Shown one piece after another: positions 32,829-56,400 of a DNA stretch of 64,000 bases. The notes beneath the pieces were generated by a model. It made no database searches, was not told the origin of the DNA, and worked only from the letters and a program-made list of their open reading frames with translations. Made by a program: the position numbers and the translations under genes. The stretch's first letter is position 1; each line of letters begins with the position of its first letter. Location of the stretch: assembly GCA_934101595.1 (NCBI GenBank), contig CAKORR010000001.1, forward strand, positions 107,558 through 171,557. The letters are read 5' to 3'. Source of the DNA: an uncultured Bacilli bacterium. Lineage in GTDB: Bacteria > Bacillota_I > Bacilli_A > RF39 > UBA660.

Positions 32829-34091
32829 TTAATCTTTTTCAATAACTTTGGCTTTTATTTTTCCATCATGGAGTCTTATATTTATGGTATCATCTATTGA
32901 AACCTCAGAACTATTCTTTATAATATGACCATTAATATCTACCAAAGAGTATCCTTTTTCTAGTATACCAAGGGGATTAACCAATTTTAAAGTATTGATA
33001 AGTAATGTATAGTCATTTCTTTTCTTATCAAATAAACTCATAGGATTTTTAAAAACATAAGACATTTTTAATTCTTTGAGTTTTGCTTCATTAGTTTGTA
33101 AAATATTTTTTATATCTTTAGTTAAGAAATCAAGTAATGTATCTAGTTTTTGCTCTTTTACTTCATACATTGCCATAGGATTTTTTAAAATAAAATTATT
33201 TTTTAAACTACGCCATTTAATAAATTTAGTGTTAACCATATTTTTTATATTTTTATTAAGTCTAATTTTTAAATTATTTAAAAGATTGTTAACATCTAAA
33301 ACTGTAGGAACAGCCATTTCAGCTGCCCCAGTTGGAGTTGGAGCCCGTAAATCTGCGACATAATCTGCAATTGTCCAATCTATTTCATGTCCAACGGCAC
33401 TTATTATTGGTGTATTTGAGTCATATATTGCATGAGCAACAATTTCTTCATTAAATGCCCACAAATCTTCAATAGATCCTCCCCCACGGCCAACTATAAT
33501 TGTATCAACACCATATTCATCTGCTCTTTTTATTTGCTTAACTATATCTTGGGCTGCTTGTTTACCTTGAACTAAACAAGGAAATAAAATAGCTTCACAT
33601 ATAGGATATCTTCTTTTAATAGTGCTCATTATATCTTTTACAGCGGCACCGGTTGAAGCGGTAACAACGCCTATTCTATTTGGATATTTAGGAATTGGTT
33701 TTTTATGCTCACTAGCAAATAATCCTTCACTAGCTAATTTCTTTTTTAATGCTTCATATTCTATATAAAGTGCTCCTAATCCATCAGGCTGCATGTTATC
33801 AACATAAATTTGGTAACTACCACTAGCTGGGTATGCACTTATTCTTCCTTCAACTAAAACATTCATTCCATCTTCGGGTGTAAAAGTAAGCTTAGATGCA
33901 TTACCATAAAACATTACAGCGTTAATTCTTGACGTATCATCTTTTAAGGTAAAATATAAATGTCCTCTTGTGTGGTTTTTAAAGTTACTAATTTCTCCCT
34001 TTAGATATACCTTATTTAAAAATGCATCATTATCTAAAATTTTTTTTATATAATTATTTAAATCACTTATCTTTAAATATTTTTCATCCAT
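32829..34091 (-). CDS. xseA: exodeoxyribonuclease VII large subunit
   Basis: 420 aa with an N-terminal OB fold (...RGHLYFTLKD...) and catalytic region (...RGGGSIEDLWAFNEE...). Confidence 0.85.
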   Translation of the reverse strand: MDEKYLKISDLNNYIKKILDNDAFLNKVYLKGEISNFKNHTRGHLYFTLKDDTSRINAVMFYGNASKLTFTPEDGMNVLVEGRISAYPASGSYQIYVDNMQPDGLGALYIEYEALKKKLASEGLFASEHKKPIPKYPNRIGVVTASTGAAVKDIMSTIKRRYPICEAILFPCLVQGKQAAQDIVKQIKRADEYGVDTIIVGRGGGSIEDLWAFNEEIVAHAIYDSNTPIISAVGHEIDWTIADYVADLRAPTPTGAAEMAVPTVLDVNNLLNNLKIRLNKNIKNMVNTKFIKWRSLKNNFILKNPMAMYEVKEQKLDTLLDFLTKDIKNILQTNEAKLKELKMSYVFKNPMSLFDKKRNDYTLLINTLKLVNPLGILEKGYSLVDINGHIIKNSSEVSIDDTINIRLHDGKIKAKVIEKD

Positions 34092-34494: not shown

Positions 34495-34559
34495 AATAAC
34501 ACCTCAACTTAATTGATTATAACACGTTTAAAAAAAAAATACATTAAATAATGTATCTT

Positions 34560-36086
34560 TTAACTAATATTTAAATCTGCAAATGTATTTGTCGAATAAT
34601 ATCCAAATTTAACGTTATTTTGATTTAAACTTGTATTACCTTCGAAAGGTTTATACTTAGTAGAACTAAGTGTTATTGTTTTATTAATTGTTAAACTATT
34701 TAATTTATTATTTTTAAATGCCGATGAATCAATGGTTACTTCGGAGTTTATCTCTAACTCTGTTATGTTATTACTAGAAAAAGCGTTGTCGCCAATTTCT
34801 TTAAGAGTTGTCGGTAAATAAACATTTGTTAATCCACAATTGGAAAACATTTGCTGTGCTATTTTTTCTAGCCCTTCAGGTAATTCCAATTTAGATATTT
34901 TAATCCCAGGAAAGTATTCATAATCTCCTAAATTCAATTGTTTTAATTTACTTAAATCCACAAGATTGTAAAAACAATCTGTTCTATCTGAGTCATACAT
35001 GCAACTTGCAGAGTTATATAAACCAATTATATAATCTGTACCCATTACTACTTCGGTAGGATTATTTCCAGAATAGTCTGTGCCGCTTTTTAAATACATA
35101 AACTTTATACCATTGTATACGCTGCTGCCATCGTCATTTGTATAGTCGTCGCCAATGCCAATCATTGAATTTGGAATACTAAACAAATCTTTGCTTACTT
35201 CATCAGATAATTCACTATATCTTATAATGCTTTTCGTTTCATAACCACTTTCGCTCGCATCAAATTGATTTACTGCAGCACTTAACGTATTATAATTAGC
35301 TTCGTCAAGAATTACATAAACGTCTTTTGATTCATTTGTGTCTTGATAATATAAAACATTTCCCTTTTGAAAAGCCGGGTTAATCATATTTTTTGGCGTT
35401 ATTCCTTTAATTGTTTCGGGAACTATTATATTTTCACCACATTTATAATTGTTATAGTAACCCAAAAGTCCATTTGATCCTATCAAGAAACAATCTTCGC
35501 TACTTTCTTTTATCCCCTTTTGTGTTTGGCTTGCTACTACTACTACTTTACTATCAAACACCTTATTTTGTTCGGTCATTGGTGTATTTTCATCCATCCA
35601 CATTTTTATACTATGAGTTTTGCTTTTATCCTTTTCACTTGTTCCTAATACTCCAACATATAGTTCTTTATCAAATCTTGCATTTGCCTCTTTTTTGACA
35701 TTTACTGTTTCATATTTAGTAAGAGCTCTTCCCACTTTATTATCTAGAGCTATTTTTATATTACTTTCATCTATATAATTTGTATTTGTGCTATTTGTTA
35801 ATGCCTCTAAATTTACAGAATATGATATTTCATTATTACAATTATTTGTTACGGTAAATTGATATCCGCTTCCTTTTATTCCTTCGCTATCTGGTGTTGG
35901 AAATGTATTATTTAGGGCTATTCCATCTCCATTATCACTAAAGTTTATATCCAAACATGACGAAGTTAATGTATTTACTCCACTTTGACTTTTTGTTACT
36001 TGCCATAACGCATATGTTCCTGCTACTACTAGCGTTATTAATAACATTACTATTATGCTTGTTAAAATTATCTTCCTCTTATTCAT
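34560..36086 (-). CDS. exported surface protein, paralog 2 (TasA-like signal + LRR), driven by a poly-G-containing promoter
   Basis: 508 aa. Residues 5-225 are identical to paralog 1, then a mosaic divergent middle and a similar LRR C-terminus. RBS GAAGGTAGG. Confidence 0.6.
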   Translation of the reverse strand: MNKRKIILTSIIVMLLITLVVAGTYALWQVTKSQSGVNTLTSSCLDINFSDNGDGIALNNTFPTPDSEGIKGSGYQFTVTNNCNNEISYSVNLEALTNSTNTNYIDESNIKIALDNKVGRALTKYETVNVKKEANARFDKELYVGVLGTSEKDKSKTHSIKMWMDENTPMTEQNKVFDSKVVVVASQTQKGIKESSEDCFLIGSNGLLGYYNNYKCGENIIVPETIKGITPKNMINPAFQKGNVLYYQDTNESKDVYVILDEANYNTLSAAVNQFDASESGYETKSIIRYSELSDEVSKDLFSIPNSMIGIGDDYTNDDGSSVYNGIKFMYLKSGTDYSGNNPTEVVMGTDYIIGLYNSASCMYDSDRTDCFYNLVDLSKLKQLNLGDYEYFPGIKISKLELPEGLEKIAQQMFSNCGLTNVYLPTTLKEIGDNAFSSNNITELEINSEVTIDSSAFKNNKLNSLTINKTITLSSTKYKPFEGNTSLNQNNVKFGYYSTNTFADLNIS

Positions 36087-36106
36087 AACTACCTACCTTC
36101 TATTTA

Positions 36107-36137
36107 ACTATACCCCCCCCCCCGCGTATTTTGTCAA
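36107..36137 (-). promoter_or_regulatory. promoter with an 11-nt G homopolymer inside the -35/-10 spacer (putative phase-variation switch)
   Basis: Minus-strand reading is TTGACA (reverse complement of 36132-36137), AAATACGC, G×11 (plus-strand C run 36113-36123), then TATAGT (reverse complement of 36107-36112). Spacer is 19 nt. ATG lies 21 nt further downstream. Confidence 0.6.
36113..36123. repeat. homopolymeric C11 (G11 on the coding strand) tract
   Basis: Counted directly: C at 36113-36123. An 11-nt G/C run in a genome of very low GC. Confidence 0.9.
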
Positions 36138-36164
36138 GCAAAAAAACACGATATATTCGTGTTT
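36138..36164 (-). terminator. intrinsic terminator downstream of the 36177-36548 gene, abutting the -35 box
   Basis: Minus-strand hairpin AAACACG-AATATAT-CGTGTTT followed by TTTTTT, then GCTTGACA. Confidence 0.55.
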
Positions 36165-36176: not shown

Positions 36177-36548
36177 CTAATTATTATGAGCACTATCATT
36201 ATTTAGTGCCATTGATTCAATCTTAATACTATCACTAGCATTTTCAATGTCTTTTGAAACTTCTGTATCAGTACCTTGTTCAGCTTCTACAGTGTCGTTA
36301 ATAAACTTTGTCATATCGGCAAGTTCGTTTTGTAATGTTTCAATAATAGATTGTGATCCACTATTACAAAAGCTATTAAAATCTTCAAAAAATCTTTCGC
36401 TTTTTGGTCCGATCCATGATTTGTTTTCTTCAAGATTTTTAAAGTCTTTTAAAATGGTTTCAATATTTACGATAGTTGAATTCATATAGTCTTTTAACTT
36501 TGATGATATATTTAAAACTTCATCTGTATTTATATATTTTTCTTGCAT
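36177..36548 (-). CDS. WXG100-like small helical protein (W-I-G-P-K-S subtype)
   Basis: 123 aa with a central ...ENKSWIGPKSERFFEDF. Homologous to the 40493-40810 protein (YWLGPKSAIFAEKI). Acidic C-terminal tail. Confidence 0.6.
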   Translation of the reverse strand: MQEKYINTDEVLNISSKLKDYMNSTIVNIETILKDFKNLEENKSWIGPKSERFFEDFNSFCNSGSQSIIETLQNELADMTKFINDTVEAEQGTDTEVSKDIENASDSIKIESMALNNDSAHNN

Positions 36549-36555
36549 AATTCAC

Positions 36556-36825
36556 CTACCTATAAATATCTATTTGTTGATACTCTTTAATATATCTTGA
36601 AAGTTTTTCATTATAATTTTTTAATCCATTAACTACTTTTCTTAGATATACAAGGGTTTCTCCATTTATGTGCCTATCGAATGCTCTTTGATATTTACTA
36701 CTCCAAGCTGTGGTATTACCTGTTAAGTTTTGAATTAATGGAATATTTTCTTGCACTCTTTGGATTAATGTAGCGATATCTTGACAAGCATCAGAAACAT
36801 CTTGATATTTAATTTTTGTATTCAT
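36556..36825 (-). CDS. small helical WXG100-like partner protein (degenerate W-S-S)
   Basis: 89 aa, ...TAWSSKYQRAFDRHINGETLVYLRKVV... Homologous to the 40823-41095 protein (GEWKGKYQEEYDNHINGKTEKYLRKLV). Confidence 0.5.
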   Translation of the reverse strand: MNTKIKYQDVSDACQDIATLIQRVQENIPLIQNLTGNTTAWSSKYQRAFDRHINGETLVYLRKVVNGLKNYNEKLSRYIKEYQQIDIYR

Positions 36826-36840
36826 AATAATCTCCCTTTT

Positions 36841-38511
36841 TTATGAAGCTTTATTTGCTTTCGCATAAATGTTGCCTGTATTTATATAAGAACCTTTTTC
36901 TAATCTTGTATCAACCCCTTGTTTCTTTTGATAATAATTGGCAATCTCATCAGCACTTTTACCTGCTAACTCTTCTTCAGTAAAGTCTGTTTTAGCATAT
37001 TCCAAATGCAAATGGGTTCCAGATGATCGGCCTGTACTTCCCATTATACCAATTGGACTATCGTCTGTTATAACATCGCCGGCTTTAACTTTAGGAGTCT
37101 CTCTTAAGTGGGCATATCTACTCATATAATACGATATAGTTCCATCATCATTTATTACCTCGTGAAGCATAACAACTTCATTACCATAGCCATAATTTGA
37201 ATGTCCTGAATAGACTACAACTCCCTCTTGGATAGGTTTTATAGAAACATTTTCTCGTGATCCCTCAGGAACATAATCACAGCCCCTATGGTCAAAATAA
37301 CCATTACCAGTGCCGTCTTCACTCCATCTCGAATCTATGTATGAACTAATTCTATATGCGTTATTTAATGGCAAATTTATATCTGTTTTTTCAAAAGAAG
37401 AGGCTTCAACGCTCCAACTTGATTTTGAAAGTTTTTCGTAAGAAGCTAATTTATTTATAACTAATGGCTCTATTTCTTCTTTCTCGGCATCAATATAAGT
37501 TTTAGTTACATTTCCTAAATCATTAGAAGCACCTTTTACAGTTGAAGCTAAACCAGGGATTATTATAACTTGGCCAACTTCTATTTGATTTGGGTTAGAA
37601 ATAGTATCTCTATTTGCTTCATATATTTCTTCCCAATCAACACCATACTTTTCAGCAATTTTACTTAATGAGTCACCGCTTGCAATAGTGTATTTCAAAG
37701 GCTCTGTTTTTTTCTCTCCTTCTACTTCCTCATTTAAAGTTTCATCTGCTAAATCTATTAAAACAACGTCTTCATTATTCTCATATTTTGTAATATTATC
37801 AATATGATTTTTACTTTTAACTATAACATCTGTAGCAGCACTTTTTATTTTCTCGATATTTTTTATGATAACACTTCTAAAAGTGCCAATTGGTTCTCTT
37901 ATTATTTTCGCTTTACCATTATACTTTGATATAACTTCCAAAGTACGATTATCATATGTTGAATTACCTAAAGCAGTAATTGTATTTTCACATATTGTAA
38001 TAAGATTTTCGAATAAAGTCGTAACGTTTTCTGCAAAATCTGTTTGGATGCCGAAAACTTCATTTCTTATCATGCCCTGAACTGCAGGTATATTCCAATA
38101 AATTTTAAATTCTTCTCGTAAAATACCAATTCTACGTTGAGTATCAATAAGTTTATTTTTAGCCCTATAATATTCTTGCATATAATGTTCCCATACGGAT
38201 GTCGAAGCCGTACCATCATTTACATGTTCTTTCATAACGGCACAATTATCAAGAGCATCCATAAATTGCTGAAGATCTATTTTTTCTTCTTCAACAAGTA
38301 TAACCATTTCATCTAATTTATTTATTTGATTGATTACATTATTAACAGATGGATATCCAACACTATTAACCATATCTCTTAACTTTTGGCCAACTTGAAA
38401 AGCAACAAACCCCACCCAAGGATCGCTTTCGCTATCACCAAAAAGAGAATTCGGAGCAATTCTTCGAGAAGTTAAAATCCAATTTTGTAAATCAGTTGTA
38501 TTTATGGCCAT
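36841..38511 (-). CDS. LXG/WXG-like N-terminal domain + LysM + M23 (LytM-type) metalloendopeptidase (candidate effector I)
   Basis: 556 aa with no signal peptide. N-terminus has SLFGDSESDPWVGFVAF (L-x-G and W-x-G). LysM at YTIASGDSLSKIAEKYGVDWEEIYEANRD...GQVIIIPG. M23 motifs FDHRGCD (HxxxD) and GTHLHLEY (HxH) are intact. Confidence 0.65.
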   Translation of the reverse strand: MAINTTDLQNWILTSRRIAPNSLFGDSESDPWVGFVAFQVGQKLRDMVNSVGYPSVNNVINQINKLDEMVILVEEEKIDLQQFMDALDNCAVMKEHVNDGTASTSVWEHYMQEYYRAKNKLIDTQRRIGILREEFKIYWNIPAVQGMIRNEVFGIQTDFAENVTTLFENLITICENTITALGNSTYDNRTLEVISKYNGKAKIIREPIGTFRSVIIKNIEKIKSAATDVIVKSKNHIDNITKYENNEDVVLIDLADETLNEEVEGEKKTEPLKYTIASGDSLSKIAEKYGVDWEEIYEANRDTISNPNQIEVGQVIIIPGLASTVKGASNDLGNVTKTYIDAEKEEIEPLVINKLASYEKLSKSSWSVEASSFEKTDINLPLNNAYRISSYIDSRWSEDGTGNGYFDHRGCDYVPEGSRENVSIKPIQEGVVVYSGHSNYGYGNEVVMLHEVINDDGTISYYMSRYAHLRETPKVKAGDVITDDSPIGIMGSTGRSSGTHLHLEYAKTDFTEEELAGKSADEIANYYQKKQGVDTRLEKGSYINTGNIYAKANKAS

Positions 38512-38595
38512 ATTACCACGTCTCTTTCCCTATTCTTTATCATGTTAATTATAATATTATTCTCACATTAAATCAATTATAAAATTAAATACATT

Positions 38596-38623
38596 AAAAT
38601 AAAAATTACAGGGCACCCTGTAA
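38596..38623 (-). terminator. GC-rich intrinsic terminator between the LysM-SLT and LysM-M23 genes
   Basis: Minus-strand hairpin TTACAGGG-TG-CCCTGTAA (plus 38606-38623) followed by TTTTTATTTT. A TTGATT-17nt-TATAAT promoter candidate follows at about 38540-38575. Confidence 0.55.
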
Positions 38624-38627
38624 TCTT

Positions 38628-40484
38628 CTACATTATATCTCGTAACATTTCCGTATACTTCTTATTTAAACGATTAGCTAGATCTTGTTTAGTTATTACT
38701 CCATCGCCATCCACGTCTAAACCCCTATTATAAGAATAATAGCTTTCGCCTTTGACACATAAAGTATTTTTCTTGGCTCTACCTGGTAAGAACATAACCG
38801 CATATAATGTACCAGCATCTAATTCTTCGCCATTTTTGTAAGGACTAGCGCTTTTAATATATTTTTCAACTAAATCAAGTTGATCTGTTGCGGACATATT
38901 GGCTATCTGTTCAGTCGTGTAACCAAGATTACGAGCAGTGCTTGGCATAAATTGGATAAGGCCAACAGCTCTACTACTGCTTTCAATATGAGATGGATCA
39001 AGAGCACATTCTGAATACATAAGAGCAAGTAAATCATTTGGATCACAATTAACATTTTTAGCGACTTGTTCTAGTTTAGCACTAAATCCTGGCTCGAATC
39101 TGTCATCCAAACAACTTGCTAAAGCACTATCTAATACTTCTACTTTAGGAGAGCTAGTATTAGTACTTGTCTGAGCCGCGGATACTCCTTTTTCATTTGC
39201 TCTTTTATGGGCAGCTTCATTTCTATCTTTAGTTGCTTGTTCTCTTTCACTAATTTCCTTAGTATCACTTTCTTTAGATACAGCTTCTTTAACTTCTGTT
39301 TTTTCTTTAACCTCAGATTTTTTATCATCCTTACCAGATTCTGTTTCGTCAGTCTTTTTAGTTGCCACACTAACAGAACCAATGGCTGCAGCACCAATTA
39401 CGCCTTCAAATACTGGAGGGTTAATATCAAATGCTTCCTCTTCTTTTTCCTCAAACTTAAGACCTGTATATTTGCTAATAACATCTGCGGCACTTACAGG
39501 ATCATTACTTTCTTCTTTTTGACCTGGAATTGTAAGCACTTGTCCAGGATATATCAAGTTTGGATTATCGATCTTATCAGCGTTTGCTTCATAAAGCTCT
39601 TTCCAGTCAATTCCATATTTCGCTGCAATTTTAATTAAATAGTCACCTTTTTCAACAACATATGTTCCGTGATTAGAAGATGTACTATCACTACTAGTCC
39701 TTTTTCTTTCTTTAGCATATTCAAAGTCATTACGATATTCAAATTGTTTAATCTTGGCAAAATGATATTTTAACAAATTTAATTGGCGAGTTGCTTCATC
39801 AAGACATTTTTTAATATTAACTTTTATATTATTACACGCTGAATAGAAAAAACCACTAACTTGATAATCACTAGAAGATAAATCGTCATTGCCACTTGGA
39901 ATTTGAAAATCACTTGACCTCATGGAATTCATATTCAACATTTGCATATTTAAATATTTTACTATATTATTTAAGGGCTCAATGACTTGCTTCTCAAAAG
40001 TTGCTAAGTTTATCTCATATTTATCTGAATTATAGTTTTCCCATGGAGTAACCTCTATTTCCACAATTGGAGTTAAAACAGAAACTATTTCTTCTTTCTT
40101 TTTGATGATTTTCTTTTTTAATTCTTTAAGTGTCGAAGATATTATAATCTTTTGTTGAGCCAACATATAAACGTCCGCATGATCTTTATATGCAATTTCT
40201 TCATCTATAGTTTTGCACGCTTTGTATTTACTTTCATAAGATAACTTTAGGGCAAGTAAACCATCGGTTGGATTCATTACTAAATCAACCGCTTTGCTAT
40301 AATCTTTTAGCTGGTACATAATGCCTTCATTTTGGATATAGCTCAACATTCTATCAATAATATAGCATCTCCGCTTTAATTCAGCTGCTCTTTTTCCGTA
40401 AAACATCAAAGTTGCCGGATTAAATCTTTTAGATATCTGATATGCAAGAAAAATATTATTTGTATCTATTTTTACTTTAACCAT
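38628..40484 (-). CDS. LXG-like N-terminal domain + LysM + family-1 lytic transglycosylase (SLT) (candidate effector H)
   Basis: 618 aa with no signal peptide. N-terminus has ...LMFYGKRAAELKRRCYII (compare F-x-G-K-x-A-x-x-I-K of LXG domains). LysM at YVVEKGDYLIKIAAKYGIDWKELYEANAD...GQVLTIPG, then a K/E-rich low-complexity linker. The C-terminal SLT domain is about 70% identical to that of 25274-26167 (MYSECALDP...AVGLIQFMPSTARNLGY). Confidence 0.65.
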   Translation of the reverse strand: MVKVKIDTNNIFLAYQISKRFNPATLMFYGKRAAELKRRCYIIDRMLSYIQNEGIMYQLKDYSKAVDLVMNPTDGLLALKLSYESKYKACKTIDEEIAYKDHADVYMLAQQKIIISSTLKELKKKIIKKKEEIVSVLTPIVEIEVTPWENYNSDKYEINLATFEKQVIEPLNNIVKYLNMQMLNMNSMRSSDFQIPSGNDDLSSSDYQVSGFFYSACNNIKVNIKKCLDEATRQLNLLKYHFAKIKQFEYRNDFEYAKERKRTSSDSTSSNHGTYVVEKGDYLIKIAAKYGIDWKELYEANADKIDNPNLIYPGQVLTIPGQKEESNDPVSAADVISKYTGLKFEEKEEEAFDINPPVFEGVIGAAAIGSVSVATKKTDETESGKDDKKSEVKEKTEVKEAVSKESDTKEISEREQATKDRNEAAHKRANEKGVSAAQTSTNTSSPKVEVLDSALASCLDDRFEPGFSAKLEQVAKNVNCDPNDLLALMYSECALDPSHIESSSRAVGLIQFMPSTARNLGYTTEQIANMSATDQLDLVEKYIKSASPYKNGEELDAGTLYAVMFLPGRAKKNTLCVKGESYYSYNRGLDVDGDGVITKQDLANRLNKKYTEMLRDIM

Positions 40485-40492
40485 ACCTTCAC

Positions 40493-40810
40493 CTACTTTA
40501 CTGATTGTCCAATTGCGTCATCAGTTTCTTCAACTTGACCGCAGGCGTCTTTTATAAATTTTATTAATCCATCGAAATCACTTTCAACATTATCTAAAAT
40601 TGCTCCAGAGTTTTCATTTTTAGCAAAAAATTGAGCTATTTTCTCTGCAAAAATAGCAGATTTTGGACCAAGCCAATAATCGCTGGTTATTTTTTCATAT
40701 GATTGCTTTATAACATTAATATCAGTTAAAATTTCATTTTTCTTAGCGTTTAAAACATCTGCTTTGGCTAATAGTCTATCATAATCGACCATTTGGGTAT
40801 TATCGTTCAT
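40493..40810 (-). CDS. WXG100-like small helical protein (W-L-G-P-K-S subtype)
   Basis: 105 aa with a central SDYWLGPKSAIFAEKIAQFF. Confidence 0.6.
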   Translation of the reverse strand: MNDNTQMVDYDRLLAKADVLNAKKNEILTDINVIKQSYEKITSDYWLGPKSAIFAEKIAQFFAKNENSGAILDNVESDFDGLIKFIKDACGQVEETDDAIGQSVK

Positions 40811-40822
40811 TTCTTCACCTAC

Positions 40823-41095
40823 TTATTGATCTATTTTTTGGTAACCTTGCATAGTTTTTTCTAAATAATTATTAAAATCTTCAAAACAGGTTACCAATTT
40901 TCTTAAATATTTTTCTGTTTTACCATTAATATGATTGTCATATTCCTCTTGATATTTGCCTTTCCATTCACCATTAGAAATGGCATCGTTTAACATAGAA
41001 TCAATACTAAGTTGTAGTTGTGAAATATATCTTTTAATAAGATTAATTTCATTTCTAATTTCAGTATAATGAACAGAAACCTTCTCATTATTCAT
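40823..41095 (-). CDS. small helical WXG100-like partner protein (W-K-G)
   Basis: The track ORF extends to 41197, but the likely start is ATG at 41093-41095 (MNNEKVSVHYTEIRNE...), preceded by AAGGTG. 90 aa with a central GEWKGKYQEEY. The 5' extension would overlap the mutS terminator. Confidence 0.5.
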   Translation of the reverse strand: MNNEKVSVHYTEIRNEINLIKRYISQLQLSIDSMLNDAISNGEWKGKYQEEYDNHINGKTEKYLRKLVTCFEDFNNYLEKTMQGYQKIDQ

Positions 41096-41182
41096 TCTAT
41101 CACACACCTTACTATAATAATAATAGCATATTATTATTCGATTTTTTAATTTATACTTACATTTAATGTAAATAATATGTAT

Positions 41183-41209
41183 ATAAAAAAGAAACATTTT
41201 TAATGTTTC
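41183..41209 (-). terminator. intrinsic terminator overlapping the mutS stop codon
   Basis: Minus-strand hairpin GAAACAT-TAAAA-ATGTTTC followed by TTTTTT. Confidence 0.5.
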
Positions 41210-43755
41210 TTTCTCTCTTCTTTAAGTTTATATAATATATTTAAGGCATCAATTGGGGTTGTATTTAAAATATCAAGTCTATCTATTTCTTCTAAAATTT
41301 TGTTAGATTCTTGTAAGGTATTATCAAAAGACATAGACAATTGAACATTATTTTCTTTTTTCTTTTTAGTTGGATTATTCTCGTATTTTTTTAATATTTC
41401 ATCAGCTCTTTTGATAAGTTCATCTGGCATGCCCGCAAGTTTAGCTACATGAATACCATAGCTTTTATCAATGGCACCATCTTTGACTTTATGCAGAAAA
41501 ACTATTTTTTCATTTTCTTCATAAGCTCTAACATGAACGTTTTTAATAGATGGATAAACTTTTTCTAATGACGTAAGTTCATGGTAATGAGTTGAAAATA
41601 ATGTTTTACAACCTATATGTTTAGTAATATATTCAAGTATTGCTTCGGCAAGGCTCATTCCATCGAATGTAGCTGTACCTCTACCTAACTCATCAAAAAG
41701 TATTAAACTATTTTTGGTAGCGTTTACTATAGCATTTTTTGCCTCGGTCATTTCAACCATGAATGTAGATGATCCACTAACTAAATCATCACTGGCTCCA
41801 ATTCTAGTAAAAATCTGATCTATTAGGGGCAATGTCGCACTTTTAGCTGGGACAAATGAGCCCATTTGAGCCATTATAACAATAATTGCAAGCTGTCTCA
41901 TGTATGTTGATTTACCTGACATATTTGGACCGGTTATTAATAAAGTATTTATATTGCTATCCATAACGATATCATTAGGAACATACTCATCTTTAATTAC
42001 TTTCTCTACAACAGGATGCCTTCCATCACGAACGATTAATTTAAATTCATCTGAAAAGGTTGGACGTACAAAGTTGTATTCTTCCGCACAATGAGCTAGT
42101 GATGTTATGGCATCTAATTCACTAATTATGTATGCAGCTTTTTTTAAATCTAAAATTTCACTTTTAATTTTGTCTTTAATTTCTAAAAACAAATTATATT
42201 CTAACTCAATAATATTTTCTTCAGCGTTTAAAATAAGTGATTCTTTTTCCTTTAAAAGTGGCGAAATATATCTTTCACAATTACTTAAAGTTTGTCTTCT
42301 TTCCCATTTGAATTCATCTTTTACGTAACTGGCTTGACCTTTAGATACTTCTATGTAATATCCAAATACTTTGTTATAGCCAACTTTAAGATTTTTTATC
42401 CCTGTTTGTTCTTTAACCTCTTTTTCAAAATTAGCTAAAAAGTCTTTTCCTCCACTACGAACTTTTTTTAATTCATCTAATTCTTTATTATAGCCATCTT
42501 TTATTAAATATCCCTCTTTTAGAGAAACTGGAGGATTTTCATAAATACCTTTTTCTAGTAATTCATATAAATTATCAAACGTTTTAAATTCATAGTTAAA
42601 TTTTAAATCTTTAATTATTTTACTAATATCAGGAAATACTTTTAAACTAGTTTTTAATTGTAACAAATCACGAGCATTTATATTTCCACAAGTGATTTTT
42701 CCACACAATCTTTCTATATCATAAACCATGTCTAATTTATTTCTTAATTCATCTTTTAAAATAAACTCATTATTTAAAGTTTCAATTTTATCATAACGTT
42801 CATTAATTAAATTAACATTTTTTAATGGATTAAGTAACCAATTTTTTAAAAGACGACTGCCCATCGCTGTTTTAGTTTTATCAATCAACCAAATTAGCGA
42901 ATATGTTCTTTCTTTTAAGCGAAGAGTTTCCACAAGTTCTAGGTTTCTAATGGTATGAACATCCATTATTAGATAATCGTCTTTATTTATTACATTAACT
43001 TTATCGATATGATCAAGAATCTTTAACTCGCGTACTACTAGATAATACAAAAGATGCTTAACACCCATTTTAGCTCGTGCATCACTTACTGAATCAACTA
43101 TTTTTTCATACTTTTCTTCTAGAAATTTATCACTAATAGATACTTCAATTCCATAGTTGTTTTTAAGTGTATCTATAAGCTCTACCTGTAAATTATTTTC
43201 CAAAATAACTTCTTTAACATTTAGACTTAATAATTCACTAATTAACTTTGTCAAATCATGAGTAATAGATAAAGAATTAATAACTCCCGTCGAAATATCC
43301 GCGTAAGTAATCATATAGATATAATTAAAGTCAAGCACACTAGCAATGTAACTATTATCATGTTCACTTAGTAATTCATAGTCTGCAATAGTTCCCTTAC
43401 TTAATACTTCAACAACACCTCGTTTAACCATTCCTTTAGTTGTTTTAGGATCTTCCAATTGCTCACATATTGCAACTTTATATCCCTTATCAATCAACTT
43501 TTCAAGGTAAGGCTTTACTGAATGAAAAGGAACGCCACACATCGGAATTCGCTCAGAAAGTCCGGCATTTTTTCCAGTTAATGTTAATTCAAGTTCTTTA
43601 GATGCTGTTATACCATCTTCAAAAAAAAGTTCATAAAAGTCTCCCAAGCGAAAAAAAAGCAATTCTTCTGGATATTCGTTTTTAATTTCAATATATTGCT
43701 TCATCATTGGGCTTAATTTTTCAAAATCTACATCGTTTCTTTTCATATTTACCAC
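41200..43755 (-). CDS. mutS: DNA mismatch repair protein MutS
   Basis: 851 aa with an N-terminal mismatch-binding domain (...MKQYIEIKNEYPEELLFFRLGDFYELFFED...), Walker A GPNMSGKST, and a C-terminal HTH. Confidence 0.9.
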   Translation of the reverse strand: MVNMKRNDVDFEKLSPMMKQYIEIKNEYPEELLFFRLGDFYELFFEDGITASKELELTLTGKNAGLSERIPMCGVPFHSVKPYLEKLIDKGYKVAICEQLEDPKTTKGMVKRGVVEVLSKGTIADYELLSEHDNSYIASVLDFNYIYMITYADISTGVINSLSITHDLTKLISELLSLNVKEVILENNLQVELIDTLKNNYGIEVSISDKFLEEKYEKIVDSVSDARAKMGVKHLLYYLVVRELKILDHIDKVNVINKDDYLIMDVHTIRNLELVETLRLKERTYSLIWLIDKTKTAMGSRLLKNWLLNPLKNVNLINERYDKIETLNNEFILKDELRNKLDMVYDIERLCGKITCGNINARDLLQLKTSLKVFPDISKIIKDLKFNYEFKTFDNLYELLEKGIYENPPVSLKEGYLIKDGYNKELDELKKVRSGGKDFLANFEKEVKEQTGIKNLKVGYNKVFGYYIEVSKGQASYVKDEFKWERRQTLSNCERYISPLLKEKESLILNAEENIIELEYNLFLEIKDKIKSEILDLKKAAYIISELDAITSLAHCAEEYNFVRPTFSDEFKLIVRDGRHPVVEKVIKDEYVPNDIVMDSNINTLLITGPNMSGKSTYMRQLAIIVIMAQMGSFVPAKSATLPLIDQIFTRIGASDDLVSGSSTFMVEMTEAKNAIVNATKNSLILFDELGRGTATFDGMSLAEAILEYITKHIGCKTLFSTHYHELTSLEKVYPSIKNVHVRAYEENEKIVFLHKVKDGAIDKSYGIHVAKLAGMPDELIKRADEILKKYENNPTKKKKENNVQLSMSFDNTLQESNKILEEIDRLDILNTTPIDALNILYKLKEERKKH

Positions 43756-48356: not shown

Positions 48357-50030
48357 TTATAATTCATATTTAACTACAGCATCACCGCTCCAGTTACTTC
48401 CTAAAGTCATTCCTGTTGCATCAGCTCTTTTTATAGTAATTGTTGATGCATTAGTTAGGCCATTAAATGCTCTATCATCTATTTTGGTTACACTATTTGG
48501 AATAATGACATTTGTAATTGTTGACTGAGCAAACGCGGCGTTATAAATTTCCGTATATCCTTGGGCAATTTCTAATTTATTAATTTTCATGTTTGTGAAT
48601 GCGCCATTAGCAACTGTTTCATTAGTATTAATATGGCCTAAAATATCATGACCAGTTACATACGTAAATGTTAAATTATTAATGGTTGACCCTTCAAAAT
48701 ATCCTATTGCACTATACTCATTTACAGGGTTAAATATTAATGATCCATAAAGTTCTAGAGTATCAATATTACTATAGGCAAATGCTCCAACACCAATTTT
48801 TATATCACTAGTATTAACTCCAAAATTTAGACTTGTTAGTCCAACTCTTTGAGTTTGTGTTGTATCAAGTTCATATGATGTTTTTCCATCACTTGTCGTC
48901 TCTTTATACATAACATTTGAAAATGCAAATTTTTCTATTTCTTCTAGTTTAGTGGCTTTTGAGAAATTAACACCTTTTATTACTAAAGAAGCACTAACTT
49001 TTGGCGTTTGGCTTACCGTCATTTCACCGTCTTCACTTTCAGGTAAAATATAATATAATCCTTCTTCTCCAGCCGTTGCCGTTTCGGGTACATCAGATTC
49101 TTTAGTTACATAAGTAATAGTTGCTGTTTGATCCTCTTCTGTTAAACCATTTAGTAATGCTTCTATACGTGATCTATTTGATTCATTTTTTACAAGAATA
49201 TAATATTTCATTCCTATGTAAACATCGTTAGTAGAGTCATATGTTGCATTTGATGAATCATTCCACATCATAAAATCAGTTAAGTCCTTTTCTTGTCTAA
49301 ATGCACTTGTTGCTATTTTCTTAACATCTTTTTTATTAACACTTTCAGGAATAACTACATTTTCTCCACATGAAGTATCATATGCGGTAATCACTCCATT
49401 AGAATCTATTGTAAAGCAGTTTTCTGGAGTAGCAACTAAACCTTCATTGTCATTTTTAATTCCTTGTCCACCCGTTATAAATATTTTTCCATTAAATTGT
49501 TTTCCTTGTTCAGTAATAGGTGCATTTTCATCAATCCATATTTTTAGCAAATGAGTCTTAGTGGCATTACCACCTATAGATGCGGTTTTTAATTCTTTTG
49601 ATGATCTATAAGTATCAGGGCCTTCGATATCATTTAAACTACCATATGTTCCTAAAACCTCATTATCTATAGATAGTGCAACAGCACTATCTGACATATA
49701 TCCCGTATTTGCATCCCCATCTACTGATTCCAAACCTATAATATAATTTACGGCATTACTACAATTATTAGTTACCGTAAAAGTGTATCCAGTTAAATCA
49801 TTTTGAGCATTAGCACTAGTCATTGGCCAGCTATTTTCTAAACTGATGGGTGTGCCTTCGCCTACTTTATTAAGATCTAAATCTAGACATGCCGCGATCA
49901 TGCTATTTTTATCTTTTTGAGTTTTAGTTACTTGCCATAAGGCATAAGTCGAAGCAACTATTATTAAAAGAACTAAGCAGATTCCAATAGACATACCAAT
50001 AATTTTATTACGTCTAACACTATTTTCCAT
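48357..50030 (-). CDS. exported surface protein, paralog 3 (TasA-like signal + LRR)
   Basis: 557 aa. N-terminus ...LLIIVASTYALWQVTKTQKDKNS. Shared core CFTIDSNGVITAYDTSCGENVVIPESV. LRR-like C-terminus. Upstream TTGACT-18nt-TATTAT promoter candidate has no homopolymer. Confidence 0.6.
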   Translation of the reverse strand: MENSVRRNKIIGMSIGICLVLLIIVASTYALWQVTKTQKDKNSMIAACLDLDLNKVGEGTPISLENSWPMTSANAQNDLTGYTFTVTNNCSNAVNYIIGLESVDGDANTGYMSDSAVALSIDNEVLGTYGSLNDIEGPDTYRSSKELKTASIGGNATKTHLLKIWIDENAPITEQGKQFNGKIFITGGQGIKNDNEGLVATPENCFTIDSNGVITAYDTSCGENVVIPESVNKKDVKKIATSAFRQEKDLTDFMMWNDSSNATYDSTNDVYIGMKYYILVKNESNRSRIEALLNGLTEEDQTATITYVTKESDVPETATAGEEGLYYILPESEDGEMTVSQTPKVSASLVIKGVNFSKATKLEEIEKFAFSNVMYKETTSDGKTSYELDTTQTQRVGLTSLNFGVNTSDIKIGVGAFAYSNIDTLELYGSLIFNPVNEYSAIGYFEGSTINNLTFTYVTGHDILGHINTNETVANGAFTNMKINKLEIAQGYTEIYNAAFAQSTITNVIIPNSVTKIDDRAFNGLTNASTITIKRADATGMTLGSNWSGDAVVKYEL

Positions 50031-50130: not shown

Positions 50131-51951
50131 TTAAGGCTCAAATTTAATTGTTGCATTGCTACTCCAATTTTCACCTAAAGTCATGCCATCTAGATTTGCT
50201 CTTTTCATAATTATTGTGTCTTTTTCTATAGCACCAGCAAATGCCTTTTCGCCAATAATCTTAACATTTTTAGGCACGACTATAGAAGTTAATAAAAAGT
50301 CGTTTTCACTATCTTCATCACTAAAAACAAATTGATATCCGCCAATTTCGATTAATGATTCTGGCAAATTTACATTTTTTATAAATACGCTTTGAAATGA
50401 TTGTTCACTTATTTTAGTAATGCCTTCGCTTATATTAACAGTTGTAACATAGGATAGAAAAAATTGGCCGCTTAAAACCGATCCGATTACTCCGCCAACA
50501 GTTGTATCATCAACAGTTTTATCTTTATAGTCAATCACAGTATTATCCTTAGATGGTTTAATTGTTAGATTATTAATTGAACTCATACCAAATGTTTGTG
50601 AATTGTATCCTTTTTCTATAGTGCCTGTAAGCGAATTATAAACTGTTAATTTATCAAGTTTGCTAAACAAAAAAGCCCCCGTACCTATTTTTATGGCATT
50701 ATCATTAGCCCCAAAATTAATATAAGTTAATCCAAAATCTAAAGAATTATCAAAATTATCTTTACCATTAGCAGTTGCCTTATCATAATTTGCTGAAATT
50801 TTATCAAGACCAGCTTCGGTCGTACCATCATAAAGGGTAAATGCATATGGTTCTATTTCTTCTAAGTAAATTGCTTTTGAAAAATCTACTCCTTTAATAG
50901 TAAATATATTGTCCTTATAAGGAGTTTGAGCTAATAAAAATTCATCCTCGCCATTCTCATCCTTGGCAATAATGCCATACTTACCTTCTTCTGTTTCACT
51001 CGCTGTTGTTGGAAGTTCTGATTCGTTATTTATGAAAAAGTTATTTGAGGCTTCTTCTTCAGATACTTTTTTAAAAAACTCTTCTATTCTACTCTTGGCT
51101 TTGTCATTTTTAACTATTATATAATACTTTATTCCTGTAGTCTTATCTTCTTTTTCATCATACACCGAAGAACTTAAATCTTCCCAAAGCAAAAAATCTG
51201 TAACATCTTTTTCTGGTCTAAATGCGTTAGTAGCGATCTTTTTTACTTTGACATTGTTAACGCTTGCAGGTATTACAACCATTTCTCCACAAGAATCATC
51301 ATATTTAGAAATAATTCCATTAGAATCTATTGTAAAACATTTTTCCGGAGTTGCTAATAACCCTGGATTATCATTTAAAATTCCTTGACCACCAGTTATA
51401 AATATTTTTCCATTAAAGGCTTTTCCCTGTTCCGTAATAGGAGCTCTTTCATCAATCCATATTTTTAATAAATGCGTATTGGTTTCTTTTCCCTTGATTT
51501 CAGCAGTTTTTATTTCTTTTGATAAAATATATGTATCAGGGCCTTCGATATCATTTAAGCTATTAAATGTTCCTAACACATCGTCATCAATTGCTAATGC
51601 AACTGCTGATGCACTTAAACTTGCTAGCCTTTCATCTTCTAATGATTCAAGTCCTATTACATAACTTATTGGCGTATCACAATTATTAGTTACGGTAAAT
51701 GTATATCCTGTTAATTCTTTTACGGCATCAACCGCATTCATAGGCCAACTATTTTCAAGGTTAATAACACTACCTTCACCAGTTTTGTTAAGATCAAGAT
51801 CTAGGCATGCCGCAATCATACTATTTTTATCTTTTTGCGTTTTAGTTACTTGCCATAAGGCATAAGTCGAAGCAATTATAATTAGAAGTACCAGAGCAAT
51901 TCCTATAGATACCCCTATAATTTTGTTATGTTTATTATTTTCACTTTTCAT
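50131..51951 (-). CDS. exported surface protein, paralog 4 (TasA-like signal + LRR), driven by a poly-G-containing promoter
   Basis: 606 aa. N-terminus ...LLIIIASTYALWQVTKTQKDKNS. In tandem with paralog 3. RBS TAGGATGG. Confidence 0.6.
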   Translation of the reverse strand: MKSENNKHNKIIGVSIGIALVLLIIIASTYALWQVTKTQKDKNSMIAACLDLDLNKTGEGSVINLENSWPMNAVDAVKELTGYTFTVTNNCDTPISYVIGLESLEDERLASLSASAVALAIDDDVLGTFNSLNDIEGPDTYILSKEIKTAEIKGKETNTHLLKIWIDERAPITEQGKAFNGKIFITGGQGILNDNPGLLATPEKCFTIDSNGIISKYDDSCGEMVVIPASVNNVKVKKIATNAFRPEKDVTDFLLWEDLSSSVYDEKEDKTTGIKYYIIVKNDKAKSRIEEFFKKVSEEEASNNFFINNESELPTTASETEEGKYGIIAKDENGEDEFLLAQTPYKDNIFTIKGVDFSKAIYLEEIEPYAFTLYDGTTEAGLDKISANYDKATANGKDNFDNSLDFGLTYINFGANDNAIKIGTGAFLFSKLDKLTVYNSLTGTIEKGYNSQTFGMSSINNLTIKPSKDNTVIDYKDKTVDDTTVGGVIGSVLSGQFFLSYVTTVNISEGITKISEQSFQSVFIKNVNLPESLIEIGGYQFVFSDEDSENDFLLTSIVVPKNVKIIGEKAFAGAIEKDTIIMKRANLDGMTLGENWSSNATIKFEP

Positions 51952-51973: not shown

Positions 51974-52003
51974 ACTATACCCCCCCCCGGAGCATTTTGT
52001 CAA
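51974..52003 (-). promoter_or_regulatory. promoter with a 9-nt G homopolymer inside the -35/-10 spacer (putative phase-variation switch)
   Basis: Minus-strand reading is TTGACA (reverse complement of 51998-52003), AAATGCTCC, G×9 (plus-strand C run 51980-51988), then TATAGT (reverse complement of 51974-51979). Spacer is 18 nt. The flanks are conserved with the 36107-36137 cassette. Confidence 0.6.
51980..51988. repeat. homopolymeric C9 (G9 on the coding strand) tract
   Basis: Counted directly: C at 51980-51988. Confidence 0.9.
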
Positions 52004-52048: not shown

Positions 52049-52801
52049 TTAAAAACCACGTGAACTTCCGCCACCACCGGAAGAGCCTCCACCTCCAGAG
52101 AATCCTCCAAATGATGAATGACTAGACGAAGAGTCACTATCGCCAAAGCCAAAGAATAAAGTGTTATTTCTTCTTCGACCACCAGGTTTTTGATTACGGC
52201 TTGCAATAAGGACGATTATAACGAATATAAAAATTATACCCAAGCGAAAGAACACTTCATAATCTACATTGCTTTCTTTTTCTGGACTATCTACAGAGCC
52301 ATCATAATTATAATAGTCAGCCACTTCTTTAAAAAATGCTTTATAACCATTTAACATTCCTTCATTAAAATCATTAGTTTTAAAGTAAGGAATCATATAC
52401 TCATCTTGAAATCTTCCTGTTTTACCATCTGGTAATATGCCCTCTAAACCATATCCAACTTCTACGCGCATTTTTCTTTCTTCCAAAGATAATAACAATA
52501 ATAAGCCATTATTCTCATTCTTATTACCAATCTTGAAATTACGGAATAATTGTGTAGCATATTCTTCCAAACTTGCTCCATTTAAATTTGGTACTGTTAC
52601 TACAACGATTTGAGCTGTTGTTTTACTGGCAAGTGCTACACTATGCTCTTGGATATAATTTTCAGTTTCACTATCTAGTATGTTAGCATAATCATTAACA
52701 TAATAATTTCTTGTTGGAGTAACAGTTTCAAATGCTAAAACGTGTTCTTTAGGAATACATAAAACTACTAAAAAAAGAAAAAAGAATAAAATCTTTTTCA
52801 T
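52049..52801 (-). CDS. TPM-domain (YgcG-like) protein with Gly-rich C-terminus
   Basis: 250 aa: signal peptide, TPM/phosphatase-like domain (...YANILDSETENYI...QIVVVTV...), a TM helix, then a GGGGSSGGGGSS tail. Immediately downstream of lemA, a conserved pair. Confidence 0.7.
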   Translation of the reverse strand: MKKILFFFLFLVVLCIPKEHVLAFETVTPTRNYYVNDYANILDSETENYIQEHSVALASKTTAQIVVVTVPNLNGASLEEYATQLFRNFKIGNKNENNGLLLLLSLEERKMRVEVGYGLEGILPDGKTGRFQDEYMIPYFKTNDFNEGMLNGYKAFFKEVADYYNYDGSVDSPEKESNVDYEVFFRLGIIFIFVIIVLIASRNQKPGGRRRNNTLFFGFGDSDSSSSHSSFGGFSGGGGSSGGGGSSRGF

Positions 52802-52802: not shown

Positions 52803-53366
52803 TTAGAACTCTACTTTTGGAGCATCAGTTTTACTTTGATCTGCTTCAAAATAAGCTTTTTTATCAAATCCGAACATATTAGCTAAAATATTAGTTGGGA
52901 ATGTTTTAATAGCTGTATTGTATGAAGTAACAGCATCATTATAGTCGCGTCTTGCCGTAGCTATTCTATTTTCAGTCCCCGCAAGCTCATCAGATAATTG
53001 AATAAAGTTTTGACTTGACTTTAAGTCAGGATAATTTTCAACTACTACCATTAATGCATTCAAAGCACTAGTTAACTCGCTATTAGCAGCACTTTTCTCA
53101 GATACAGTATTTGCTTTTAATAAATTTTCTCTAGCTGAAGTAATTTTATTAATTATTTCAGTTTCATGAGAAGTATAACCCTTTACTGTACTAACTAAGT
53201 TAGGTATTAAATCTGCTCTTCTTTCTAATTGGACATCAATATTAGATAATTCTCTATCCACTTTTTCTTTTTTAGCAACTAATCCATTATAACTACCACC
53301 AATACTAGCAATAATAATGATAACGATTGCCACAACCCCTAATAAAATCATTGTTGATTTTTTCAT
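52803..53366 (-). CDS. lemA: LemA-family membrane protein
   Basis: 187 aa with an N-terminal TM followed by ...YNGLVAKKEKVDRELSNIDVQLERRADLIPNLV..., the LemA consensus. Confidence 0.8.
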   Translation of the reverse strand: MKKSTMILLGVVAIVIIIIASIGGSYNGLVAKKEKVDRELSNIDVQLERRADLIPNLVSTVKGYTSHETEIINKITSARENLLKANTVSEKSAANSELTSALNALMVVVENYPDLKSSQNFIQLSDELAGTENRIATARRDYNDAVTSYNTAIKTFPTNILANMFGFDKKAYFEADQSKTDAPKVEF

Positions 53367-53489: not shown

Positions 53490-56400
53490 TTAAATTTTCT
53501 CGATATCAATTAGTACTTCATGAGAATTTATATCAAGCTTCTCATTTAAATTATCCTTTTTAGAAATTTCAACAGCTAAAGTTTCATCTTTAATATATTG
53601 TTCAAATTCTTTGAATGATTTTTCTATTTCTTGATCAGCATTGTAATATAATTTTATACGATCAACTACATCAAAGTCTTTATTTTTTCTTAATTGTTGA
53701 ACTTTAGAAACGATTTCTCTAGCATTTCCTTCAAGAATTAATTTATCTGTTAATTCAGTATTTAAAATAACAAATAAATTATTATCCATGCCAACATTAA
53801 AGCCTTCTTTATTAGAAATTCTAATATCAATTAGATCACGAGTAATTTCATAATCCTTACCATTTATTTTTAAAGTAACAGATTCACTATTTTCTAGTTT
53901 TTTAATAGAATCTTTGTCTAACTCTTTTAAAGCATTTTGATATTCTTTAATATCTTTGCCAAATACTTTACCTGCCTCTTTAAAGTTCGGTCTAATTTCT
54001 AAATTCATGTATTCATTTAAATCATCATTAAACTTAACATTTTTAACGTTCAACTCTTCTTCAATCAACCATACTAAATCATCAATAATAGCTTTTTTTC
54101 CGCCATCTAAGATAATCTCACTTAAAGGTTGACGAACCTTTATTTTGTTTTCTTCCCTAACCATACGTCCAATCGAAATTAAATCTCTTACTAAATCCAT
54201 CTTTTCTTCTAATTTATCATTTATTAGCGATAAATCATACTTAGGGAAATCTTCTAAATGAACAGATTCTTTGTCAGTCAAATTGGTAAATATTTCCTCA
54301 CTAATAAAAGGAGTGATTGGGGCAATCATTTTTGATAACCCAACTAATACATCATATGTAGTTTTATATACAGCTTTTTTTGAATTATCTAAATCGCTTT
54401 GCCAGAACCTTTTTCTATTTCTTCTAATATACCAGTTAGATAAGTCATTTGAAACAAACTCTGTTACAGCTTTGACAACTTTATTTAAATCATATTCATC
54501 ATAACTATCAGTAACATATTTTAAAAGTTTATTATATTTTGATAAAAGCCACTTATCTATTTCTTCTAAATCATCATATGATACATCACATGCATTAATA
54601 TCAATCTCATCCGTATTAGCATACATAGCAAAGAAATTATAGGTGTTTTTTAGAGGATTAAAGAATTTAGAATATACTTCTTTCATACCATTTATATCAA
54701 ATTTAAGTGGAGTCCATACTGGTGATACGTATGGTAAATAGAATCTTACTACATCAGCACCATACTCTTTAATTGTTGTAAATGGTTCGACTATATTGCC
54801 TCTACTTTTAGACATCTTATGTCCATCTTTATCTTGAATTAGATCATTTACTAATACGCTTTTAAATGGGCTTACCCCTTTTACAAAAACTGAAATAACA
54901 AGTAGCGTATAGAACCAACCTCTTGTTTGATCTATGCCTTCACAGATAAAATCAGCAGGAAACTGAGAATTGAACAACTCTTCATTTTCAAAAGGATAAT
55001 GATACTGAGCAAATGGCATTGATCCAGAATCAAACCAACAATCAATTACATCTTTTGCACGAGTCATTTTTCCTTGACATTTAGGGCATCTTAAATGAAC
55101 ATTATCTACATATGGTCTATGTAATTCAATAGATGTATCAATATCTTCGATTGCAAGATCTACAAGTTCTTTTCTACTTCCAACCATGATACTGTGACCA
55201 CATTCACAAATCCAATATGGAAGTGGGGTTCCCCAATATCTTGAACGAGATATTGCCCAATCTTTTAAATTCTCAAGCCAATTTCCAAAACGCTTCTCGC
55301 CAACATATTCTGGATACCATTTAACTTTTTTATTTGCTTCAATTATTTTATCTTTAATTTTTGTTATTTCAAGATAATAACTAGGTTTTGAATAGTAAAT
55401 AAGTGGTGAATCACATCTCCAGCAATGAGGATAAGCATGAACTATTTTTTGCTTTTTAAATAGTTTATCATTTTTCTTTAAATATTCTATAACTAACTTG
55501 TCGGCATCAAAAACGTTCATACCTTTCCATGGACCGTCTAAATATTTTCCATCTTCTCCTACTGGATTTAAATATGGTAAATTATATTTTTTACCTACGT
55601 TAGCGTCATCTTCACCAAATGCAGGAGCTAAGTGAACAATACCGGTACCATCTTCCATTGTTACATAGTTATCTACAGTTACGTAAAATGCCTTTTTGTT
55701 AACTGATAAGCCAGGAATTAATTGCTCATATTCACTATACTCTAAATCTTTACCTAAATAAGTTCCTAATATTTCATATTCATCTCCTAGAACCTTATTA
55801 GCTAATTTTTTTGCTAAAATAAATTTATAACCTTGAGAAAGAACTTTAACATATTCTTCATTAGGATTTACACATAATGCCACATTGGCAACTAAAGTCC
55901 AAGGAGTTGTTGTCCATACTAAGAAGTAAACATCCTCATCTTTTTTCTTCATAGGAACAATAACTGTTTCTACTGAAACATCTTTATATCCTTGCGCAAC
56001 TTCATGTGAAGCTAAACCTGTTCCACATCTAGGACAATATGGTAATATTTTAGATCCTTCATAAAATAGTCCCTCATCAAAGAATTTTTTTAATATCCAC
56101 CATTCAGTTTCAATATAATCATTTTGATAAGTTACATAAGGATGTTCCAAATCAATGAATTGGCCCATTTTACTAGTCAATAATGAAAAAGCCTTTTCAT
56201 TTTTCCAAACACTTTCACGGCACTTTTTATTAAATTCTTCGATACCATATTTTTCGATATCTTTTTTGCCACTAAAGCCTAACTCTTTTTCTACTTGCAA
56301 CTCAACTGGAAGGCCATGAGTATCCCATCCAACTTTTCTTAATACTCTCTTACCTTGCATTGTTTTGTACTTACAAAATGTATCTTTTAAAAACTTAGCA

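Follow-up and report, generated by a model that had tools for sequence, protein, structure and literature searches.

A poly-G tract in the promoter spacer of a leucine-rich repeat protein gene as a candidate slipped-strand switch in uncultured gut Bacilli

In the DNA of an uncultured Bacilli bacterium, a run of 11 G residues lies between the near-consensus -35 and -10 hexamers of a gene for a leucine-rich repeat (LRR) protein, hereafter gene B. By comparing this locus (site 1) with its counterparts in other metagenome assemblies and with related genes, we conclude that the run is probably (roughly 0.8) the slippage-driven, variable part of the spacer of a housekeeping-sigma promoter, and that the expression of gene B would switch with its length. 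Such a slipped-strand contingency switch had been proposed in an initial annotation of this DNA, and the reading stands because length polymorphism is confined to the tract and because the arrangement recurs across paralogues and species. The sequence-level features of promoter-spacer phase variation by simple sequence repeats (SSRs), a class that includes porA, TP0126, vlp and hif, were found here. The positions of the main elements in the window (the whole stretch of 64,000 nucleotides that was analysed) and the alleles of the two tracts are listed in Table 1.

Table 1. Promoter elements, genes and tract alleles of the LRR gene family in the window and in other assemblies
Feature	Position or assemblies	Strand	Remarks
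-35 hexamer TTGACA, gene B	36137-36132	minus	same in 10/10 strain assemblies
Non-repeat part of the spacer, AAATACGC, gene B	36131-36124	minus	AAATACGCC in most other strains
G11 homopolymer, gene B	36123-36113	minus	variable element; G8-G11 in other strains
-10 hexamer TATAGT, gene B	36112-36107	minus	kept in all strains
RBS GAAGGTAGG, gene B	36100-36092	minus	read from sequence
Intrinsic terminator of the upstream 123-aa gene	36164-36144	minus	8-bp stem, loop of 5, T7
A/T-rich hairpin and T run 3' of gene B	34556-34530	minus	read by eye
-35 hexamer TTGACA, gene D	52003-51998	minus	sequence read, joint-pattern match
G9 homopolymer, gene D	51988-51980	minus	spacer AAATGCTCC + G9 = 18 nt; G10 in one other assembly
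-10 hexamer TATAGT, gene D	51979-51974	minus	sequence read
Gene A	6574-8109	minus	511 aa, close paralogue of gene B; repeat-free promoter TTGACT (8161-8156), 17 nt, TATAAT (8138-8133)
Gene B	34560-36086	minus	intact 508-aa ORF; N-terminal hydrophobic helix ending TYA-LWQ, Cys-containing beta-rich domain (conserved), C-terminal BspA-type LRR
Gene C	48357-50030	minus	557-aa paralogue; repeat-free promoter TTGACT (50083-50078), 18 nt, TATTAT (50059-50054)
Gene D	50131-51951	minus	606-aa paralogue; C-terminal LRR_5
Site 1 allele ACGC+G11	window, L048		spacer 19 nt
Site 1 allele ACGCC+G10	L011, L014, L015		spacer 19 nt
Site 1 allele ACGCC+G9	L016, L047, L049		spacer 18 nt
Site 1 allele ACGCC+G8	L007		spacer 17 nt
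Site 2 (gene D) allele G9	window, L001, L002, L047
Site 2 (gene D) allele G10	L003		at a contig end

Length of the tract and the proposed switch

The order of TTGACA, G11, TATAGT and ATG given in the initial annotation was correct to the base when read on the minus strand, including the 19-nt spacer composed of AAATACGC and G11. The same annotation had called an 11-nt G/C run improbable in so AT-rich a genome, which is borne out by base composition: with a G+C content of 28.5%, the numbers of runs of 11 nt or longer that are expected in 64 kb are 2.4e-4 for C and 1.8e-6 for G. Only two G/C runs of at least 6 nt were detected in the 64-kb window, namely this G11 and a G9 (51980-51988) in the promoter of the paralogous gene D, approximately 16 kb away, and both read as G on the coding strand. 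Moreover, the joint pattern TTGACAAAAT-N(8-30)-TATAGTTAAA was found twice in the window, versus 0 occurrences in 100 shuffles. Both runs are of slip-capable length (a homopolymer of about 7-8 nt or more, far above chance).

Orthologous loci were collected from independent human-gut metagenome assemblies by exact-protein look-ups and one pattern scan. Among these searches, look-ups with gene B and P0001 gave no match, and the one with the 258-aa middle gene gave a single 2.3-kb contig; the DNA-pattern scan returned 0 matches in one-genome-per-species contigs and six in JGI metagenomes, of which L007 was the sole orthologue and the other five were chance matches. Across ten independent assemblies, site 1 carries G8, G9, G10 or G11, corresponding to spacers of 17-19 nt. 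Aligned over 4.5 kb, the strains share 96-99.7% identity with the window, and outside coding sequence they show no indel other than the tract. Within coding sequence, the indels are in-frame, consisting of single 3-nt events and one compensating pair (gaps of 1 nt and 4 nt, 9 nt apart, in a divergent stretch of gene B) that keeps the frame. Three other homopolymers that served as controls, T10 (34530-34539), A8 (34040-34047) and T7 (36140-36146), are constant in every assembly, as are the flanks. The comparison of homologous loci had been suggested earlier as a check, with an invariant tract as the refuting outcome; this outcome was absent.

The relationships among the strains further indicate how recently the tract has changed. 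L011, L014 and L049 are only 3-6 substitutions apart in 4.5 kb, with 0 in the 1.55 kb upstream, yet they carry G10, G10 and G9, respectively, and a second clade (L015/L016) also holds both G10 and G9. Since near-identical strains differ and both lengths occur in two clades, the tract has changed repeatedly and recently.

In the proposed mechanism, slipped-strand mispairing during replication would add G residues to the spacer of gene B or remove them, and expression would switch with tract length in a heritable yet reversible manner. A spacer of approximately 17 nt is expected to be strongest, one of 18 nt intermediate and one of 19 nt weak or off. The window allele of gene B (19 nt) would probably be low or off, the G9 alleles of site 1 would be intermediate, and the G8 allele of L007 would be the strongest. 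That 19 nt corresponds to an OFF or dimmed promoter may reasonably be inferred from the spacing rules for sigma-70/SigA and from porA and TP0126. Gene D would be an independent switch of the same kind, intermediate in the window with its G9 and 18-nt spacer, and genes A and C would be expressed from fixed promoters, so that a cell could vary which family members are displayed. The benefit would presumably lie in varying exposed proteins against host immunity, phage or niche.

An intact-looking mutS gene (TIGR01070, 1026 bits; 41200-43755, minus strand) was observed between the two switch loci. Mismatch repair is therefore presumably active, and the rate of switching may be moderate. When MutS was used as a query for taxonomic placement, the matches were MAGs (metagenome-assembled genomes) labelled simply 'Bacilli bacterium' or 'Firmicutes bacterium'.

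The gene family and its promoters in other genomes

Four members of the family are present in the window. The earlier description of gene B as an LRR gene is supported by the Pfam model PF13306 LRR_5 (BspA-type), which matches residues 391-502 of its product with an E value of 6.5e-17 and 62.1 bits against a cut-off of 27.7; LRR_5 also scores above the gathering threshold in genes C and D. In the N-terminal 244 aa, genes B and D share 34% identity. A stretch of approximately 650 nt, beginning about 20 nt past the ATG, is 100% identical in genes A and B, whose upstream regions are unrelated. The sharing of this N-terminal domain by a constitutive and a tract-bearing copy probably reflects gene conversion.

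Every family member starts with a hydrophobic helix, which ends in [ST][YF]A-[LY][WF], plausibly a signal-peptidase site. Neither a lipobox nor a C-terminal anchor was found in the family proteins, and the first Cys in or after the hydrophobic helix of the gene B product is residue 44. Judging from this N-terminal signal or anchor, the product is predicted to be secreted or surface-exposed. The N-terminal domain of the family has no match among the Pfam and NCBIfam models, and the AlphaFold2 model of the gene B product (mean pLDDT 55) is confident in the LRR region alone.

Several assignments to known protein types were considered and rejected. The match to the HupY/LrrG adhesin (NCBIfam NF047961) reached 22-37 bits versus an equivalog cut-off of 1250, representing local LRR similarity only. 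For a SipW-dependent signal of the TasA/camelysin type, no NCBIfam or Pfam match was found over the N terminus; the N-terminal motif [GAS][ST][YF]A[LYI][WF] resembles GGTFAYFSD, which we take to be a resemblance only. A lipoprotein of the Mycoplasma Vlp type was discarded because there is no lipobox and the C terminus consists of LRRs, not of charged tandem repeats. As a separate observation, gene C is split into parts of 340 and 184 aa by a 25-bp deletion in L002 (1997-3645), and the end of contig L003 coincides exactly with the point of this deletion; gene C may be a pseudogene in this strain, or the assembly may be at fault.

The relatives returned by a profile search with the paralogues all belong to gut metagenome-assembled genomes (MAGs) of uncultured 'Bacilli bacterium' from human, goat and rabbit. 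The human MAG JAZRRD01 (SGB_6794), whose family proteins share about 30% identity with gene B, contains 15 distinct promoters built of a terminator hairpin, TTGAC[AT], 3-10 nt, G8-G15, TATG[AC]T, an RBS and a start codon, the terminator preceding nearly all of the copies. Where the contig continues, each of them stands ahead of an intact family ORF of approximately 520-750 aa, and no G/C run of 7 nt or longer was found at these loci apart from the promoter tracts. The non-G bases of the spacer differ between paralogues (AAATACGC, AAATGCTCC, AAAGGTC, TTTGATGTCT and AAA), whereas the hexamers and the tract persist, which is the signature expected if selection keeps spacing and mutability. The pentamer TTGAC is invariant across the paralogues of two species.

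The lengths of these spacers bear on how the tract might act. They range from 15 to 19 nt in JAZRRD01, with clusters at 16 and 18-19 nt, and five of the ten site 1 assemblies have 19 nt, presumed to be the weakest spacer. The optimum could thus differ from 17 nt, or off could be the commoner state. The same values would also fit a model in which the tract is hypermutable and conserved and acts through overlapping regulator binding, or through the bendability or twist of DNA, instead of through hexamer spacing, in which case the ON length could not be predicted by the 17-nt rule; regulator-dependent tracts have been described for meningococcal opc (proposed) and for tprE/G/J of T. pallidum with CRP (PMC7864442). 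However, in two species every copy of the promoter has its tract placed exactly between hexamers close to the consensus, and the non-G bases of the spacer vary from paralogue to paralogue, so that no shared operator can be seen. We consider this explanation unlikely, and variation of the spacing by slippage is preferred.

In addition to promoter tracts, poly-G tracts within the 5' coding region were found in two related MAGs. The rabbit MAG CANQRX01 (CANQRX010000068.1; L036 3215-6546) has five short tandem paralogues with the tract at codons 13-16; a copy with G11 keeps its frame (195-197 aa), and one with G10 is frameshifted, with a stop following within 16-42 codons. A G9 forms codons 8-10 (GGG GGG GGG) in frame in the Hadza MAG CAKOMW01 (CAKOMW010000002.1; L043 7386-7560), where the ORF reads MINKHSSGGGQNT...TLSTYALYNN, a signal of the family type. 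Related species thus appear to place poly-G on the same kind of gene as a putative transcriptional or translational switch.

Taking these genomes together, we lean towards the view that a gut 'Bacilli' lineage, as represented by the human, goat and rabbit MAGs, has a genome-wide poly-G phasome devoted to one secreted LRR family. In one genome, 15 or more of the genes would be switchable. The tract would serve as a promoter dimmer or as a first-codon on/off switch depending on the species, and switchable copies would be paired with near-identical constitutive ones, the two exchanging sequence by gene conversion as for genes A and B. If true, commensal Bacillota with a cell wall would gain their first described system of this type, and metagenome reads would give direct access to the variation of antigens or receptors in gut bacteria that cannot be cultured.

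Placement of the promoter and reliability of the tract lengths

The region around the G11 tract leaves little space for a different promoter. There are 20 nt (36106-36087) between TATAGT and the ATG of gene B at 36086, with GAAGGTAGG within them, and transcription is predicted from the position of the -10 hexamer to start at approximately 36100-36101. The upstream 123-aa gene ends at 36177, and its terminator ends 6 nt ahead of TTGACA; as it abuts the -35 hexamer, there is no room for another promoter there. At gene D, 22 nt separate the -10 hexamer from the ATG at 51951, and a terminator hairpin likewise lies directly ahead of the promoter. The fixed promoters of genes A and C are 23 nt from the ATG, and the -10 hexamers of genes B and D are 20 and 22 nt from it. 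The same promoter-to-ATG distance in the tract-less genes supports TTGACA/TATAGT as the promoter of genes B and D. This pair is taken to be the only plausible promoter of gene B.

These features bear directly on another explanation, in which the true promoter is elsewhere and the G run lies in a 5' UTR or in read-through RNA, its length acting on the RNA (through structure, reiterative transcription or translation) or having no effect. Such a placement would fit the shortness of the leader predicted from the gene B TATAGT, about 14 nt. It appears quite improbable, because the T7-bearing terminator hairpin upstream of TTGACA at site 1 has equivalents at site 2 and at nearly all JAZRRD01 copies, the stretch from terminator to tract cannot accommodate another -35/-10 pair, and the only good promoter of the tract-less paralogues is at the same distance from the ATG. 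Moreover, an Rfam scan found no element at the G11 or the G9 tract. The G11 tract as a promoter spacer thus remains the preferred reading. On the 3' side, gene B has its own hairpin and T run, and nusB, which lies beyond this hairpin, has its own -10 hexamer; with its own promoter for nusB and the terminator upstream, gene B is monocistronic.

The tract lengths represent the consensus of short-read metagenomes, which is error-prone at long G runs, and it may be asked whether the length differences, or even the tract itself, are a poly-G artefact of Illumina sequencing or assembly. Three contigs begin 19-41 nt upstream of the site 2 tract, and the sole G10 allele of site 2 is at a contig end, as an artefact of this kind might predict. 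At the same time, the tract lies in the interior of contigs of 63-364 kb produced by different projects and assemblers (SPAdes NODE, MEGAHIT k141 and scaffolds), and it is always found at the same base, on the coding strand and in the same gene family. The poly-G artefacts of two-colour sequencing are a feature of the ends of reads and do not arise between flanks that are unique and conserved. The control runs T10, A8 and T7 never vary, and the invariance of T10 in particular argues against a wholesale length artefact. An artefactual origin is therefore judged highly improbable. A G-quadruplex can be dismissed by reasoning, as an intramolecular one needs more than a single run of G.

The starts of the three site 2 contigs (L002 1-47, L003 1-29 and L047 1-50, three of the five contigs covering the site) may reflect breaks in the assembly graph, due either to heterogeneity or to low coverage around the tract and hairpin.

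Known systems and genomic neighbourhood

Most of what is known of phase variation in gut commensals concerns the invertible promoters of Bacteroides, and repeat-driven switches are known mainly from pathogens and mycoplasmas. The poly-G tract in the porA promoter of Neisseria meningitidis was reportedly described by van der Ende et al. in 1995. The vlp family of M. hyorhinis, with poly-A in the promoter spacer, is said to have been characterized by Yogev in 1991 and by Citti and Wise in 1995, and in M. mycoides Vmm and M. capricolum Vmc the promoter spacer contains TA repeats.

In porA and TP0126, poly-G lies between the -35 and -10 hexamers with an optimum of 17 nt (PMC7864442). The arrangement at gene B is similar to that of N. 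meningitidis porA, in which about 9-11 G residues inside the sigma-70-type spacer of a surface-protein gene set the spacing and thus transcription (PMC7864442), an effect that would apply here by analogy. However, porA is a single porin gene of a Gram-negative pathogen, whereas here the device is copied across an LRR multigene family of low-G+C gut Bacilli; in addition, the 17-nt spacer corresponds to the longest common tract of porA (11 G) but to the shortest one seen here (G8). In T. pallidum, TP0126 (an OmpW homologue) and the tpr genes also have poly-G of 7-12 nt between the hexamers, with a 17-nt optimum and a separate tract for each tpr paralogue (PMC7864442). The differences are that T. 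pallidum is a spirochaete, that its genes encode outer-membrane beta-barrels and that some tpr tracts overlap the -35 hexamer and need CRP, whereas the present system is known from sequence alone.

The vlp system is likewise a multigene surface family of a low-G+C relative of Bacillota, in which each gene cassette has a repeat between -35 and -10 and ON and OFF states are combinatorial. The repeat of vlp, Vmm and Vmc is poly-A or TA, whereas here it is poly-G, and Vlps are lipoproteins with repetitive C termini, in contrast to the proteins with BspA-type LRRs and no lipobox found here. Unlike mycoplasmas, the present host encodes peptidoglycan hydrolases and uses the standard genetic code, as translation by table 11 leaves its ORFs intact.

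The closest biological analogue is Candidatus Mycoplasma girerdii, an uncultured, host-associated low-G+C bacterium with a large BspA-like LRR surface-protein family, in which approximately 28 BspA-like genes, eight of them phase-variable via simple sequence repeats, were found in metagenome data (PMC5476646). Its switches are dinucleotide repeats in coding regions and are translational, whereas poly-G in the promoter spacer was found here, with 5' coding poly-G in the two related MAGs.

In the literature, no description was found of poly-G or other SSR promoter switches in RF39, in uncultured gut Bacilli or in BspA-type families. The mechanism is textbook, and its host lineage, the family of proteins concerned and its apparent use at both the transcriptional and the translational level are new. 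The system would represent a pathogen-style contingency switch over a whole secreted LRR family in uncultured gut Bacilli of humans and animals. If this is confirmed, tract lengths in metagenomes could be read as a record of the surface proteins expressed in each population, and it would become possible to test for selection by host, immunity or phage on these bacteria, which cannot be cultured. For annotators, it would mean that such promoters and 5' coding sequences are deliberately unstable and should not be taken for assembly errors or pseudogenes.

The neighbours of the two loci include nusB, xseA, mutS, lon, ileS with a T-box leader, and ftsA/ftsZ, and these genes indicate that the DNA is chromosomal. 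Upstream of gene B (36177-41197), genes for small WXG100-like proteins of 123, 105 and 124 aa (weak TIGR03930 matches) and an 89-aa ORF were observed, interleaved with two LysM cell-wall hydrolases, an M23 peptidase (36841-38511) and an SLT transglycosylase (38628-40484). This cluster may be a secretion or cell-wall remodelling module. The T-box leader (Rfam RF00230, 118 bits; 56619-56812, minus strand) lies upstream of the isoleucyl-tRNA synthetase gene (53490-56618). Directly upstream of the gene D promoter are a LemA-family gene and a TPM-domain gene (52803-53366 and 52049-52801), the TPM protein having a Gly/Ser-rich tail and a weak YxzE-like match.
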